A stretch of 64,000 nt of DNA from Poseidonia sp. (GTDB taxonomy: Archaea; Thermoplasmatota; Poseidoniia; Poseidoniales; Poseidoniaceae), in contig CBFIDD010000003.1 of the NCBI GenBank assembly GCA_965661285.1, positions 96,001 to 160,000 on the forward strand. Reading direction: 5' to 3'. A program made the position numbers and the translations under genes. Under the pieces are notes generated by a model. The model was not told the origin of the DNA and made no database searches. It worked only from the letters and a program-made list of their open reading frames with translations. The stretch's first letter is position 1; each line of letters starts with the position of its first letter. Of this stretch, positions 1,364-8,431 are shown in pieces.

Positions 1364-1936
1364 ATGAGCGATGCCATGGACCAACTCAAGGCGAGTTTAC
1401 AGAACGCTCCAGTCATTTGGAAAGGCGATTATCCCTACTTCATTCATCCCGTGACCGATGGCGTCCCACGAATGGACCCCCGCGTTCTTCACGCCATCAC
1501 AGAACTCGCCGTCGAGCGCATTGATTGGGACAACATCGACGTGATTCTTGGTATCGAAGCGATGGGACTCCCGCTGACCGCACCGCTGAGCATGGCGACC
1601 GGCATTCCACTGGTCATCGCGCGAAAACGCTCTTACGGCCTTGATGGTGAAGTGGAAATCGATCAGTCCACCGGCTACTCAAAGGGTGCGATGTACCTCA
1701 ACGACTTGCATGAAGGTGAACGCATCGCCATCGTTGACGATGTCCTCTCAACGGGCGGCACGCTTGAAGCGGTCATCGAAGGCGTCAGCCGGTCGGGAGC
1801 AAAGGTTACTGAAATCATGGCTGTTGTCGAAAAAGGTGAGGGATTGGCGCACCTGCAAAACCTCCATCCAGACATTCGAATCCAATCCCTGGTTCGCTTG
1901 ACCATGGACGGCGATACCATCGTCTTGCTGGATTGA
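1364..1936 (+). CDS. hpt: Purine phosphoribosyltransferase (archaeal Hpt/Apt family)
   Basis: YPYFIHPVTDGVP, GIEAMGLPL, ARKR and the PRPP-binding motif IVDDVLSTGGT. Confidence 0.85.
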   Translation: MSDAMDQLKASLQNAPVIWKGDYPYFIHPVTDGVPRMDPRVLHAITELAVERIDWDNIDVILGIEAMGLPLTAPLSMATGIPLVIARKRSYGLDGEVEIDQSTGYSKGAMYLNDLHEGERIAIVDDVLSTGGTLEAVIEGVSRSGAKVTEIMAVVEKGEGLAHLQNLHPDIRIQSLVRLTMDGDTIVLLD

Positions 1937-2039
1937 CACTCCTCGATGAGTTTCCCAACCTTTCCCCGGAGGCTGAAAGACCGATGGCAACTTCGGGAAC
2001 GTGTTAAGATGTGCAGGTCTCGTAGCCGTTGTTGGAAGA

Positions 2040-2070
2040 TTTTGAACAATTCTTTATTACACAAAAGCCT
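2040..2070 (+). promoter_or_regulatory. AT-rich putative TATA-like promoter for the 2082-4120 gene pair
   Basis: TTCTTTATTACA about 25-30 nt upstream of the GTG at 2082, in otherwise GC-rich DNA. Confidence 0.35.
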
Positions 2071-2081
2071 AGGGTTTTGTT

Positions 2082-3092
2082 GTGAACTTTGACATCGTTA
2101 CGAACATTACCCAACAGGTGTGCCAAACCGATGTTGAAAACATCCGAGAAGTGTACCTCGAAGCCATTTGCGTTCTCGCCGAAGCCTCAACTTCCTTTAT
2201 CCTCAAACTCGACGGCGACGAAGCAAAGGTTGTCCGCTCAACCCTTCCGAGCCTGCTTCACGTGTCGCTGAAGAGCGACACCATTCGTCTGGAAAACGAA
2301 TCCTTTTGCTTGAATGAAGACGAGTTATTGGCGTGGTCAGCCCTTCCACCGGTCGGAGATGGACGCCTCAAATCGATCATCCTGCGCCGGTTCACGGTCG
2401 GCTCGGAGAGTTATGTCGCATGTGCGGCTTCATCTCAAACCGATGCCTTCACACAAGATGCATGCGAACAGTTCAACTGGACAGCGCCGCTTGGCGCCCA
2501 CACCATCCGCTTGATTCGAAATTCTGCAAAAAATGAGTTGGAGAAGCGAGCGCTCATGAAGGAAATGGATGCGCTCAAACAAGAATTGGCCGGTGCCCAA
2601 ACCGCAGCAGACCAACTTGAGGGGGCAAACGCCCAACTCTCCAATGCGCTGCTTGAGGTCTCCAGCGCCAAGGCCCAATCGAAAGCCCTTCTCCTCACGG
2701 TGGGCATCGGTATCATCCTCTTTGCCATCTCGGAATTCCGAATTGAGCCCTGGCTGGAAGCATCAGGCGCTTCTCCTTCGACCTTGGTTTACCAAAAAGT
2801 GCTCATCCTCGGGGGTTTGGTACCCATACAAGTGGTCGTGGAACGCTTCATCTCCTCAAAGGTAAATTCCAATGCTTCCGCGATTCGAATCGGTATGTAC
2901 GAAGAAGCACTCGGTGTACTTCTCGAAGACGGAGCGCTCACCGAGAAAGAAATACGGTGGCTCGAACTCTACCGTCGTCAACAAGGTATCCTGCGCGAGG
3001 AAGCACAAGCAGTTGAAGCCCGTTTACGGATGACCATGCTCAAAAAGAAGCGGGAAAACTTACAAAAAACGCCGGCCATTGCCACTGCATAG
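2082..3092 (+). CDS. GAF-like domain + coiled coil + TM hairpin + C-terminal helical domain; putative rhodopsin partner
   Basis: The first ~145 aa show a GAF pattern (LAEASTSFILKLD...LKSIILRRF...AFTQDACEQFNWTAPLGAHTIR). Then a heptad region (ELEKRALMKEMDALKQEL...), two hydrophobic segments (ALLLTVGIGIILFAIS; VLILGGLVPIQVVV), and YEEAL...EDGALTEKE..WL...RRQQGI..EEA. Confidence 0.65.
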   Translation: MNFDIVTNITQQVCQTDVENIREVYLEAICVLAEASTSFILKLDGDEAKVVRSTLPSLLHVSLKSDTIRLENESFCLNEDELLAWSALPPVGDGRLKSIILRRFTVGSESYVACAASSQTDAFTQDACEQFNWTAPLGAHTIRLIRNSAKNELEKRALMKEMDALKQELAGAQTAADQLEGANAQLSNALLEVSSAKAQSKALLLTVGIGIILFAISEFRIEPWLEASGASPSTLVYQKVLILGGLVPIQVVVERFISSKVNSNASAIRIGMYEEALGVLLEDGALTEKEIRWLELYRRQQGILREEAQAVEARLRMTMLKKKRENLQKTPAIATA

Positions 3093-3106
3093 AGGGCGTG
3101 AGAACG

Positions 3107-4120
3107 ATGAAGCAACGCAAGATCAGCAATCCAGTCCTGCTATCAGCTACCCTGTTTCTCTTGACCCTCCTGCCAACCGTATCCGCCGCGGGTGGCTCAA
3201 CCTTCGAAAACGGTGATGCCATGAGCGCCCTTGAACGGGTGACGTACATCTCGTTCGTTGCCATCAGCCTGATGTTCATCGCTGCTGCGTTCTTCTTGTT
3301 CATGGAACGTAACGACGTCGCTCGGCGCCACCGCCCTGCTATCGGTATCGGCGTGATGATCGTCGGTATTGCCGGATTCCAGTATGCGCTGATGCAGGAT
3401 GTTTACATCGCTGATGGCTCCATACCCACCGACTTTCGGTACGCAGACTGGCTTACGACGGTTCCGCTGATGGCCGTCACCTTTGCTCTCCTTGCTGGTC
3501 GTGAGTCGTTCACGAACCACCGCTTGTTCAGCCTGCCCGGCATGTCGGTGCCCGGCATCATCATCGTTGGCTCGTTGTTCATGATGATCGGCGGCTACAT
3601 CGGCCAAGTAGAACTTGACCAAGCGCTCGCTGATGGCGTTGACCCCTCCGGGACACACTGGTTTTTCTTCGCTCAGGGAATGGTCGGCTACCTGACCGTC
3701 TTCCTCATCGTCGGCACCCCGTTTACGGGTTCTTACGGTATTGACGACACCAAAATCGCCGACGAATCCATTCGCCAAACCATGGGTCGGCTCCGACGTC
3801 TTGTCTTGTTTGGATGGCTCATCTATCCGGCGGGATACGTCATCGGCGCCCTCGAATTGGGGGGAGCGGGTGGAGCCGCCGCCATGATGTTGGTCTACAA
3901 CCTCGCGGACCTCGTCAACAAACTGGCCTTTGTCATCATCGTGCTCGTGGGCGCACGAGCCACCGAGGAAGCGCAAGCTGCCTACAGTTCCACCTTCACC
4001 TACGCACCAACAGCGACCAAGAGCGAGCGAGAAGAAGAAGAGGAACACCGAGACAGCCTGCGTGAACTGGCCGCTCTCGCTTCTGAGCTCGTCGATGAAG
4101 AGATCAGCGGTGAACTTTGA
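3107..4120 (+). CDS. Microbial rhodopsin, divergent proteorhodopsin family (D-T-T motif), with N-terminal signal/extra helix and acidic C-tail
   Basis: Helix C FRYADWLTTVPLM, helix F GWLIYPAGY, helix G YNLADLVNK with the retinal Lys. Start is ATG 3107 or GTG 3098. Confidence 0.95.
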   Translation: MKQRKISNPVLLSATLFLLTLLPTVSAAGGSTFENGDAMSALERVTYISFVAISLMFIAAAFFLFMERNDVARRHRPAIGIGVMIVGIAGFQYALMQDVYIADGSIPTDFRYADWLTTVPLMAVTFALLAGRESFTNHRLFSLPGMSVPGIIIVGSLFMMIGGYIGQVELDQALADGVDPSGTHWFFFAQGMVGYLTVFLIVGTPFTGSYGIDDTKIADESIRQTMGRLRRLVLFGWLIYPAGYVIGALELGGAGGAAAMMLVYNLADLVNKLAFVIIVLVGARATEEAQAAYSSTFTYAPTATKSEREEEEEHRDSLRELAALASELVDEEISGEL

Positions 4121-5403: not shown

Positions 5404-6609
5404 ATGGTGGACTATCTCGACCGAATCGGCGCTGGGCTCATCATCGCCCATCCAGAACGGTTGGATTTTGACTTCGTTCCCGAAGAACTGGTGGGAAGAG
5501 AGGACGTTCAACGTGAACTGGCCTCCAAATTCTCCAACGTGGCTTCCCCCGAAGGTGCGGCCAGGGCTGTCATCACCGGCCCGGTGGGCAGTGGAAAAAC
5601 CGTGCTCGCCAAGACGTTCTGCAGGGACCTTCAGCGCCACCTTTCGGGAAAACGTGAACTGAAAGTTGCGCACATCAACTGTCGAAACGCCTCCACCAGC
5701 ATGCGGGTCGCCCAACGCATCCTCCACCAGTTTGACCCCGGCCATCCCGACCGTGGCCTTTCACTTGGTGAGATGCTCCTCAGCCTTCGCAAAATGCTTC
5801 GACGTACATCCACGCACCTCATCGTCGTGTTGGACGAAGTGGACCACATGCTGCGTCGTTCTGGTGATGAGCTGCTGTATCAACTGCTTCGGATTGACGA
5901 AGACCAGGACGGCACGGGAACGCTATCGTTGATGCTCATCAGTCAAGAACAGGTACTCGACGTGCTCGAAACGGCCGTGCTGTCAAAGTTTGGCCAGTCC
6001 AATCATCTACGCATTAAGCCCTACACCGTTGACGGATTGGAAGCCATCGCTCGCCAGCGGGCAGAAATGGCACTGGTCCCGGGAACATGGAGCGATGCCA
6101 CCGTGCGCTTGCTGGCAGAGCGAGCGGCTGCCAGCGGTGATGCGCGGCGAGTGATTGAGTACCTCAGCAGCGCAGCAGAACGTTGTGAATTCCGTCAAGA
6201 CGGGCACACCGAGCAGGTCATCACCGTTGAGGACATTCACGCCATGAGCGACACCGTAGCGGTTGACACCAAATCACGTCTCGAAGTGGTGGACGACCTC
6301 CCCGCTCAAGGCATGCTGATTTTGCTCGCCATGTGCAGGCGCCTTCGAACCGAAGAAAGCGTGACGATGGGCGACGTTGAACGCCTCTACGCCGTGGTTT
6401 GCGAGGAGTACCAACAGAAGCCAAAAAGTCACACAACGCTTTGGAAATACGTCAAACAAATCGAACGAGAGGGTGTGATCAGCACTCGCGTGGCCACCGT
6501 GCCGGGCGGACGAGGACGTACGACCCACCTGAGCATGCCCCACTTTCTTCCAGCCGACATCGCAAGCAGGTTGGAATTGCTCTTGCCCAAGCAACTTCAG
6601 CGTCGCTGA
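5404..6609 (+). CDS. cdc6: Orc1/Cdc6 replication initiator
   Basis: F.PEELVGRE, Walker A GPVGSGKT, HINCR, Walker B VVLDEVD, GDARR, C-terminal winged helix ending GRGRTT. Confidence 0.93.
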   Translation: MVDYLDRIGAGLIIAHPERLDFDFVPEELVGREDVQRELASKFSNVASPEGAARAVITGPVGSGKTVLAKTFCRDLQRHLSGKRELKVAHINCRNASTSMRVAQRILHQFDPGHPDRGLSLGEMLLSLRKMLRRTSTHLIVVLDEVDHMLRRSGDELLYQLLRIDEDQDGTGTLSLMLISQEQVLDVLETAVLSKFGQSNHLRIKPYTVDGLEAIARQRAEMALVPGTWSDATVRLLAERAAASGDARRVIEYLSSAAERCEFRQDGHTEQVITVEDIHAMSDTVAVDTKSRLEVVDDLPAQGMLILLAMCRRLRTEESVTMGDVERLYAVVCEEYQQKPKSHTTLWKYVKQIEREGVISTRVATVPGGRGRTTHLSMPHFLPADIASRLELLLPKQLQRR

Positions 6610-7192: not shown

Positions 7193-8431
7193 ATGGCACG
7201 AAAGCTTCCCGCTCAACCCGAGGTGAACATCGGTTTGGTCGGTCACGTCGACCACGGAAAAACCACCTTGACTCAAGCCTTGTCCGGTGTTTGGACCGAT
7301 ACCCATTCCGAGGAACGAAAGCGAGGCATCTCCATCAAACTCGGCTATGCGGACACGGCCTTCTACAAGGACGACAAAGGGCAATACTACGCCACGGGCA
7401 AACGTCCTGGAGGTGGCGACGACGTCGAGGATGAACTCGAGCGCGTGGTCTCCTTTGTCGATGCTCCCGGCCACGAGACGCTGATGGCCATCATGATCAC
7501 CGGCGCGTCCATCATGGACGGCGCCATGCTGATGGTGGCAGCCAACGAAACGTGCCCGCAGCCCCAAACCCGAGAACATCTCATGGCACTGGAGATTGCA
7601 GGGATTGAAAACATCGTCATCGTCCAGAACAAAATTGACCTGGTATCAAAGGAACGAGCGATGGAGTCCCACGCTGAGATCAAAGCCTTCCTCAAAGGAA
7701 CGATTGCACAAGACGCACCCATCATTCCGGTTTCGGCACATCATGACGTGAACCTTGACGTGTTGATCGAGGCCATTGAAGCCACCATTCCTACGCCTGA
7801 CCGCTCGAAGGACAAGCGCTCCATCATGCATGTCGCACGCTCGTTTGACATCAACAGGCCGGGCACTCGACCGGCCAAACTGCGAGGCGGCGTGATCGGT
7901 GGCAGCATTGTTGAAGGCGAGTTTGCCGAAGGCGACGAGATCGTCATCGGACCCGGTCGGAAAATCGAGAAAGGAAACAAATCGACTTGGGAGCCGATTG
8001 AGGCCGTGGTGAGCAGCATGCAGGGCGGAGGCCTCAGCCTTGACAAGATGCACGCAGGCGGCCTCTGTGGAATGGCCACCTTCCTCGACCCCTCCATCAC
8101 AACCTCCGACAACCTCTCGGGCCAAGTTGTGGCTCGCAAAGGCGACCTCCCAGAGGTCCACAGCAGCGTCTCCATCAGCGTCAACCTGATGTCGCACATG
8201 GCGGCAGGTGATGGCGAAGCAGCGGAGAAGATTCAACCGCTGCGCAACAACGAGATGCTCATGCTCAACGTGGCAACCGCCACCTCCGTGGGCACGACCC
8301 GCAACGCCGAGAAGACGAGAACTGACCTTGAGTTGCGTCTTCCAATCTGTGCTGATAAAGGTCAGCGCATCTCACTCTCCCGCCGAATCGGTTCCCGTTG
8401 GCGACTGATTGGCTACGGCACCATCGAGTGA
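7193..8431 (+). CDS. eif2g: Translation initiation factor 2 subunit gamma
   Basis: QPEVNIGLVGHVDHGKTT, RGISIKLGYA, DAPGHE, QNKID, RSFDINRPG, RWRLIGYG. Confidence 0.97.
   Translation: MARKLPAQPEVNIGLVGHVDHGKTTLTQALSGVWTDTHSEERKRGISIKLGYADTAFYKDDKGQYYATGKRPGGGDDVEDELERVVSFVDAPGHETLMAIMITGASIMDGAMLMVAANETCPQPQTREHLMALEIAGIENIVIVQNKIDLVSKERAMESHAEIKAFLKGTIAQDAPIIPVSAHHDVNLDVLIEAIEATIPTPDRSKDKRSIMHVARSFDINRPGTRPAKLRGGVIGGSIVEGEFAEGDEIVIGPGRKIEKGNKSTWEPIEAVVSSMQGGGLSLDKMHAGGLCGMATFLDPSITTSDNLSGQVVARKGDLPEVHSSVSISVNLMSHMAAGDGEAAEKIQPLRNNEMLMLNVATATSVGTTRNAEKTRTDLELRLPICADKGQRISLSRRIGSRWRLIGYGTIE

Follow-up and report, generated by a model that had tools for sequence, protein, structure and literature searches.

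A donor-less rhodopsin and a GAF, coiled-coil and membrane-hairpin protein encoded side by side in Poseidoniaceae: a candidate signalling pair

What would a rhodopsin that has lost residues associated with proton pumping do beside a membrane protein of no known family? This question is raised by two same-strand genes at positions 2082 to 4120 of a stretch of 64,000 nucleotides from a Poseidonia genome (GenBank assembly GCA_965661285.1, contig CBFIDD010000003.1, positions 96,001 to 160,000). The whole of this stretch is called the window below; it belongs to contig C3 of genome G000, which is 93% complete. Gene 1 encodes a protein with a GAF domain, a coiled coil and a membrane hairpin, and gene 2 encodes a rhodopsin of the proteorhodopsin family. 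We established the linkage of the two genes, the folds of their domains, the residue pattern of the rhodopsin, the covariation of the rhodopsin tail with gene 1 and the reuse of a module of gene 1 in other proteins. Functional coupling of the two genes is well supported, and we consider it very probable. That the pair is a photosensory or regulatory signalling unit, with the rhodopsin as light input to the gene 1 module, has in our estimate about an even chance of being correct. The features of the two genes are the following.

2082..3092, plus strand: gene 1, 336 amino acids, in the order GAF domain, coiled coil, two-helix membrane hairpin and small helical tail (open reading frame, homologues and model)
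2082..2480, plus strand: N-terminal domain with a GAF fold, covering residues 1 to about 133; of the two halves of gene 1 it is the less conserved (Foldseek)
2481..2672, plus strand: long coiled-coil helix, residues about 134-197, predicted to run into the first membrane helix (models)
2673..2855, plus strand: two-helix membrane hairpin with a short acidic loop, residues about 198-258 (hydrophobic segments and conservation)
2856..3089, plus strand: cytoplasmic tail, residues about 259-336, comprising the rest of the second helix and two short helices, net charge +3 (models and charge)
3107..4120, plus strand: gene 2, a 337-amino-acid rhodopsin of the proteorhodopsin family with a signal-peptide-like N-terminus and an alternative GTG start at 3098 (PF01036 and alignment with green proteorhodopsin)
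3437..3484, plus strand: helix C motif, residues 111-126, with R, D (proteorhodopsin position 97), T (101), V (102), M (105) and T (donor position 108) (alignment with green proteorhodopsin)
3920..3922, plus strand: codon of the retinal-binding lysine, residue 272 (K231 of proteorhodopsin), in an ADLVNK context (alignment)
3956..4117, plus strand: acidic C-terminal extension on the cytoplasmic side, residues 284-337, of net charge -10 and with a short conserved L-x-E-L-A-A-L-like motif (clade alignment and charge)

Linkage of the two genes and covariation of the rhodopsin tail

Full-length gene 1 was found in 6 of the 301 genomes of the order Poseidoniales, in two of its 26 genera and in a single family, the Poseidoniaceae. 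In all 12 loci analysed (the window, L002, L003, L004, L044, L047 and L054-L059; L043, L045 and L046 duplicate three of these genomes), the next gene downstream of gene 1 was a rhodopsin gene on the same strand, at a distance of -4 to +14 nucleotides. These loci span 49-98% identity and three genomic contexts, and the same arrangement was seen, by coordinates alone, in genomes G202, G107 and G204. An earlier note, made from the window's sequence, had named synteny across Poseidoniales as a check on the pair; the check gave linkage, and the outcome it had set against its proposal, homologues that are usually unlinked, was not seen.

The pair lies between hpt and dph2 in the first context (the window, L002-L004, L054 and L056), beside a divergently oriented H-NOX gene and a short module gene in the second (L044 and L055), and beside a P-type ATPase gene and a KatG-like gene in the third (L068). 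Comparison with same-genus genomes that have no pair at the first of these sites showed that hpt and dph2 are adjacent in 5/5 of them, so that the pair has there been cleanly inserted or deleted as a segment of about 2.2 kb. Within Poseidoniaceae it is an accessory cassette. A frame of about 625 amino acids at L068 (positions 1532-3409; G204:C46) was considered as a fusion of gene 1 with its rhodopsin and rejected, the two genes being separated by a run of N that marks a scaffold gap. No fused form was present among the 33 representative matches to gene 1, the longest of which has 482 amino acids.

The window-type rhodopsin (E<=1e-80) was present in nine genomes out of 301, against six for gene 1. 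The three additional genomes (G101, G073 and G049) have no gene 1 near the rhodopsin gene and none genome-wide at E<=1e-30. Their rhodopsins, of 292-310 amino acids, end soon after helix G and lack the acidic tail that is present in the clade members paired with gene 1. A maximum-likelihood tree placed all 34 window-type rhodopsins in one clade (support 100/99), on a long branch from the type with a D/T/K helix C motif. Within this clade, the tail-less sequence of G101 (P0071) was nested among tailed sequences (95/87), the group of G073 and G049 formed a separate clade (100/100), and P0077, a sequence without known context, was also tail-less. Since the tail-less forms stand at separate places in the tree, the tail and gene 1 have been jointly present or absent on at least two branches. 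This pattern, drawn from few genomes, is the strongest hint in these data that gene 1 deals with the cytoplasmic tail of the rhodopsin.

The rhodopsin, its partner and the surrounding locus

The product of gene 2 matched the Pfam family Bac_rhodopsin (PF01036) with an E value of 1.3e-31 and has the retinal lysine on helix G, and both place it among type 1 rhodopsins. When it was compared with solved rhodopsins, the green and blue proteorhodopsins (4.3e-27 to 6.6e-24, green being best at 4.3e-27) outranked all the others. Alignment with green proteorhodopsin showed that R94, D97, T101, V102, D227 and K231 are kept, together with the pocket residues of helices D, F and G, while H75 is replaced by Q, E108 by T and the glutamate of the GYMGE segment by Q. 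The number 142 given below to this glutamate is taken from PMC10519204 and from our own reading of the alignment.

An alignment of 15 clade members showed that these replacements are not peculiar to the window. Glutamine was found at position 75 in 15/15 and at position 142 in 15/15, and position 108 was occupied by threonine in nine, serine in three, and methionine, valine and cysteine in one each, and never by an ionisable residue. D97, T101, V102, D227, K231 and the W/Y/P residues of the pocket were invariant in the same alignment, and the retinal lysine was invariant in 16/16 aligned rhodopsins. Two features that define DTE and DTK pumps, an ionisable residue at position 108 and a helix B histidine (H75) paired with D97, were thus both absent from the gene 2 clade, and the claim that gene 2 lacks pump-optimising residues holds for all 15 members. 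Other marks of the clade are an insertion of about 12 residues in the D-E loop and, in most members, an acidic C-terminal extension of about 50 residues. Motif combinations reported in PMC5864233 match those of the window clade, and the sequences concerned may be Poseidoniaceae rhodopsins.

Genome G000 encodes a second rhodopsin of 285 amino acids (L040:1501-2358, minus strand, contig C4), with the helix B histidine and a D/T/K helix C motif. This type was present in 22 of the 24 same-genus genomes sampled, and it was also found, with its helix B histidine, in the other same-genus carriers of the pair. The L040 rhodopsin, the main one of this genome, has methionine at position 105, consistent with the green-tuned type of Marine Group II that is described as "shallow photic" or Archaea clade B.

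Gene 1 had no Pfam or NCBIfam family above cut-off. Its Pfam scan returned no family at E<=1 other than a weak coiled-coil match, hence no HAMP domain and no methyl-accepting signalling domain, as had been stated from the sequence alone, and no Band_7/SPFH match. Its homologues are few: 21 were found in 5.8 billion clusters, with a Pfam domain in 0/21, and the profile search that gave the 33 representative matches covered 1.84 billion representatives. The AlphaFold model, with a mean predicted local distance difference test score (pLDDT) of 79.6 (77-92 over residues 1-140), has an alpha/beta domain at residues 1-131, a helix at 134-228, a helix at 232-281 and two short helices. Foldseek comparison of the N-terminal domain with the PDB identified a GAF fold (best match 8w26, E 5.1e-6, probability 1.0; 208 matches at E<=0.001), the matches being GAF domains of phytochromes and other sensors. 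The Pfam sequence models of GAF were not significant for gene 1 and were significant for the related protein P0024 (9.5e-5). Two hydrophobic segments are centred near residues 210 and 246. The model, the GAF fold and these segments agree with the architecture first proposed for gene 1, a GAF-like domain followed by a coiled coil, a membrane hairpin and a small helical domain.

The conservation of gene 1 is concentrated in its C-terminal half, at the end of the coiled coil and in the hairpin and tail. Among the 73 invariant columns, 10 fall in residues 1-146 and 63 at or beyond residue 188; they are dense at residues 188-257, and the hairpin is the most conserved part of the protein. A model of the module by itself (residues 140-336) had a pLDDT of 90 and a helix at its residues 2-89. 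A Foldseek search of the PDB with this model gave 0 matches at E<=0.001 (best E 2.4), and a reading of the module as a CorA-like two-helix channel or stalk was set aside as unsupported by any such fold match. Searching the ESM Atlas with residues 145-336 returned a single cluster of archaeal hypothetical proteins of 211 amino acids (0.87). Two other candidates were rejected. A TerB-like tail was suggested by TerB and DUF533 matches in a paralogue, which at E 0.19-0.26 are not significant; binding of a bilin by the GAF domain, which the phytochrome matches might suggest, was dismissed on the grounds that non-phytochrome GAF domains score alike and that gene 1 has no invariant cysteine.

The module was also found outside gene 1. 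A short paralogue of 205-229 amino acids, with 30-36% identity to gene 1, consists of the coiled coil, hairpin and tail only, and in 7/7 loci found with gene 1 as query it starts 11-16 nucleotides after the gene for a haem-NO-binding (H-NOX) protein of 180-189 amino acids (PF07700, 4.7e-38). The H-NOX and short-module arrangement is also present in L044, L055 and L060, the last of which has a tail-less rhodopsin gene, divergently oriented, adjoining the H-NOX pair. The H-NOX partner had no known output domain. One such unit lies on the contig of the window itself (L012:790-1974 on G000:C3), about 25 kb past the window end, and others are at L006-L011, L044:2723-3897, L055 and L060:2697-3873. 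No paper on H-NOX in Marine Group II was found.

In more distant proteins, the coiled coil and hairpin form the C-terminus behind a GAF domain (P0024, the protein with the 9.5e-5 Pfam match), behind REC and PAS domains (P0044) and behind TPR repeats (P0041, P0048, P0050 and P0051); the N-terminal part of P0035 is PAS-like by eye only. P0035, P0041, P0044, P0048, P0050 and P0051 have the hairpin core without the helical tail. Across 25 aligned distant members, five core columns of the hairpin do not vary (A, E, K, L and P). Since it stands C-terminal to sensor or receiver domains, the module occupies the usual place of an output domain. Judged by these sequences, it looks like signalling hardware, and its hairpin could be a hitherto unrecognised element through which signalling proteins give their output. 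Genome G000 itself gave no match to MCPsignal, CheW or HisKA; it has three open reading frames with REC domains (127, 223 and about 337 amino acids) and three HATPase_c matches in open reading frames of 662-698 amino acids. Rinke et al. report that chemotaxis genes are absent in the order.

Gene 1 occupies 2082-3092, and gene 2 ends at 4120 and starts at 3098 or 3107, giving 340 or 337 amino acids. As had been noted before, the genes are co-oriented and separated by 14 nucleotides when the ATG at 3107 is used and by 5 when the GTG at 3098 is used; 14 is the better value, because the starts of orthologues align with the ATG. Gene 1 starts with GTG in the window and with ATG at the equivalent position in orthologues. 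The flanking genes are hpt (NF040646, HPT_Archaea, 2.1e-67) and dph2 (TIGR03682, 7.8e-82), as the earlier note had identified them, and the wider flanks hold gcvH upstream and a cdc6/orc1-like gene downstream. The latter, an AAA+ gene at 5404-6609, is followed by a translation-factor GTPase gene at 7193-8431 that is aIF2-gamma-like by eye. The order gcvH-hpt-dph2-cdc6 was kept in five other same-genus genomes compared, cdc6 being unmatched in L067. One further element was located in front of the pair.

2046..2057, plus strand: promoter-like box, ACAA (2046-2049) and TTTAT (2053-2057), about 27 nucleotides upstream of the start codon of gene 1

This box was invariant in 5/5 aligned orthologous upstream regions while the remaining spacer was divergent, and the promoter-like element first seen in the window thereby gained support. 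Its position would suit an archaeal B recognition element/TATA (BRE/TATA) promoter and a leaderless transcript. The hairpin that had been claimed downstream of gene 2 did not survive: its folding was no better than that of shuffled sequence (z = 0.68; 146 of 200 shuffles folded at least as well). A search of sequencing runs found the stretch in 20 rows of DNA or unknown type from nine studies, and no RNA row was listed.

Proposed function and rival explanations

We propose that both genes form one operon that would encode a dedicated two-protein membrane signalling unit. The rhodopsin would bind retinal, and a light receptor with a slow photocycle seems a more probable role for it than that of the cell's energy pump. 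The conserved hairpin of gene 1 would lie beside the rhodopsin in the membrane, and a cytoplasmic part of gene 1 would hold its acidic C-terminal tail. The light-driven change of the rhodopsin and the binding of a ligand by the GAF domain could then be combined in one coiled-coil and hairpin module. Its output would be non-canonical, because the genome has no MCP, CheW or HisKA gene: either the basic helical tail would make contact with a protein, or the hairpin would act on a further membrane protein. Physical binding of the two proteins, a sensory role and the direction in which the signal flows are what we infer. A complex prediction for rhodopsin residues 25-337 and full-length gene 1, made with alignments and without controls, gave a score of 0.02 against a mark of 0.32 and was counted neither way.

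The earlier note had called the system sensory rather than energy-harvesting. The association of the module with H-NOX, GAF and REC-PAS sensors fits the signalling part of that claim. The step to a sensory role is still inferential, because donor-less pumps exist, because some genomes have the rhodopsin without its partner, because one genus has it as sole rhodopsin and because the GAF domain may make gene 1 a regulator. Several observations weigh against the signalling unit as we propose it. The counter-ion set of the rhodopsin (R, D97, T101 and D227) is, by sequence, of the pump type. Three of the nine carrier genomes (G101, G073 and G049) have the window-type rhodopsin without gene 1, so that gene 1 is not required for this rhodopsin type. 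The genus g15 holds the window-type rhodopsin as the only rhodopsin found (2/2 genomes, 90% and 82% complete), a pattern that would be in keeping with a part in energy supply. No output domain can be recognised in gene 1. A GAF domain most often serves as an input, so that gene 1 may be a regulator of the rhodopsin and not the relay of its signal. Lastly, donor-less DTG/DTS rhodopsins are described as pumping protons (PMC8927995).

The main alternative is that gene 2 encodes a donor-less light-driven ion pump of the DTG/DTS kind, tuned by a cytoplasmic ligand through gene 1 as a GAF-controlled regulator or assembly partner; we regard it as rather unlikely but well ahead of the other alternatives. 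The intact counter-ion residues and retinal pocket are what such a pump would have, and the DTG/DTS rhodopsins of PMC8927995 move protons without a donor. The three genomes that hold the clade without gene 1, the two g15 genomes in which it supplies the sole rhodopsin found, and the hairpin module in output position behind sensors, which fits an input by GAF and an output on a membrane target, all agree with this explanation. It accounts less well for the joint loss of three pump-associated ionisable residues in 15/15 members and for the presence of a standard D/T/K pump in same-genus carriers. The free variation of position 108 between T, S, M, V and C further suggests that there is no selection on the speed of reprotonation.

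A second alternative sees in the pair the archaeal equivalent of flotillin-associated rhodopsins (FArhodopsins, FARs), that is, a retinal-free protein of rhodopsin fold with a coiled-coil scaffold that organises membrane domains. It would explain a second, divergent proteorhodopsin paralogue with a D/T/T helix C motif and without the helix B histidine, and a same-strand coiled-coil membrane protein encoded a few nucleotides away, both as in PMC10308929. The residues that characterise FARs argue against it and make it improbable. In PsFAR the retinal site is blocked by the aromatic H84, five residues after the D97 equivalent, and by E120, and FARs have a serine three residues before the helix B histidine position where proteorhodopsins have alanine (bioRxiv 10.1101/2025.04.29.651185). 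In the window clade the H84 position is valine in 15/15 members (16/16 when all aligned sequences are counted), the E120 position is glycine (mapped by offset), and the position of the FAR-specific serine is an invariant alanine. The partner has a GAF fold and no Band_7 Pfam match, not an SPFH domain, and solved FARs scored 61.5-67 bits when green proteorhodopsin scored 98 bits.

That the two genes are neighbours without shared function, gene 1 merely travelling with the rhodopsin, would draw on the rarity of both genes and on linked loci that are few and partly related, but it is very hard to reconcile with adjacency in 12/12 loci at -4 to +14 nucleotides, across 49-98% identity and three contexts, and with the tree, on separate branches of which gene 1 and the rhodopsin tail are missing together. 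The remaining probability falls to explanations that we have not considered.

Returning to the signalling unit, a wider proposal is that the module is a previously unrecognised prokaryotic membrane output device, serving H-NOX, GAF, PAS/REC and TPR inputs, which was recruited in Poseidoniaceae as the transducer of a new sensory rhodopsin clade. We put this forward tentatively, as somewhat less probable than not. If it is true, planktonic marine archaea would have their first known photosensory system, one that works without chemotaxis or two-component machinery. In surface seawater, few archaea are as abundant as those of Marine Group II. Each of their genomes has so far been credited with one rhodopsin, interpreted solely as a proton pump (PMC6461757). 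If a third, donor-less clade comes with its own conserved partner, some of these uncultured cells would be sensing light, or controlling a process driven by it, with proteins of no known family. Htr, ASRT and flotillin are dedicated membrane partners of other rhodopsin paralogues, and the pair extends this growing list. Its natural variants without tail and partner offer a direct way to study how such pairs are assembled, and the module beside H-NOX points to a wider, undescribed signalling family. Our literature searches found neither this pair nor a Marine Group II rhodopsin with a D/T/T motif, although the supplementary motif tables and trees of PMC6336850, PMC6461757 and PMC5864233 may show members of the clade.

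Comparison with known systems

Comparison with the haloarchaeal type of sensory rhodopsin and transducer (SR/Htr) showed a shared plan: a rhodopsin without the donor carboxylate stands beside, and is probably co-transcribed with, a partner with a pair of membrane helices and a long coiled coil in the cytoplasm, and the genome encodes a separate pump rhodopsin as well. The partner described here differs from Htr in having an N-terminal GAF domain and no HAMP/MCP domain, its gene comes first, the genome has no MCPsignal or CheW, and the rhodopsin belongs to the proteorhodopsin family instead of the bacteriorhodopsin family. Assignment to SR/Htr was rejected, since the HAMP and methyl-accepting domains that define the transducer are missing from gene 1.

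FArhodopsins resemble gene 2 in being divergent proteorhodopsin paralogues that accompany a true pump and have a D/T/T-type motif but no helix B histidine (PMC10308929), and in having a same-strand coiled-coil membrane neighbour a few nucleotides away as accessory genes in streamlined genomes of marine plankton. They have been reported from bacteria only (SAR11, HIMB59 and Pseudothioglobus; PMC10308929 and bioRxiv 10.1101/2025.04.29.651185). Their partner is an SPFH flotillin of about 659 amino acids, whereas gene 1 encodes a GAF protein of 336, and their retinal pocket is blocked, whereas the pocket residues of gene 2 match those of green proteorhodopsin. With no SPFH neighbour, valine at the H84 position and alanine at the position of the FAR serine, gene 2 was not classed among them.

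The Proteo-SRs are proposed photosensors of the proteorhodopsin family that, like gene 2, have neither the helix B histidine nor a carboxylate donor (PMC10519204). In that description a tyrosine replaces D97 (Y-T/C-M) and the genes lie in clusters with Htr, CheA, CheW and CheY, whereas D97 is kept here; membership was rejected on this residue and on the lack of any MCPsignal or CheW match in G000.

The sensory rhodopsin of Anabaena (ASR) is a donor-less rhodopsin co-transcribed with a small non-MCP partner, ASRT, and gives its output through protein contacts, not through chemotaxis proteins. ASRT is a soluble beta-sandwich tetramer, whereas the gene 1 product is a membrane protein that combines a GAF domain with a coiled coil; the helix G aspartate, replaced by proline in ASR, is kept in the gene 2 clade.

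The DTG/DTS rhodopsins share with gene 2 the helix C aspartate and threonine and a small, non-ionisable residue at the donor position (PMC8927995). The window clade differs from them in that H75 and E142 are also replaced and in its long acidic C-terminal tail, and no dedicated partner gene is described for them in the part of PMC8927995 cited here.

The nearest known rhodopsins by host are those of Marine Group II clades A and B, which share with the window clade the host group Poseidoniales, the protein family and methionine at the spectral-tuning position 105 (PMC6336850, PMC6461757 and PMC12137139). The same sources give glutamate or lysine at position 108 for the described Archaea clade A and B rhodopsins and read them as pumps, whereas the window clade has T, S, M, V or C at position 108 and glutamine in place of H75. 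Rinke et al. verified only one rhodopsin per metagenome-assembled genome (PMC6461757), whereas G000 carries two: the D/T/K rhodopsin of L040 and the donor-less rhodopsin encoded beside gene 1.

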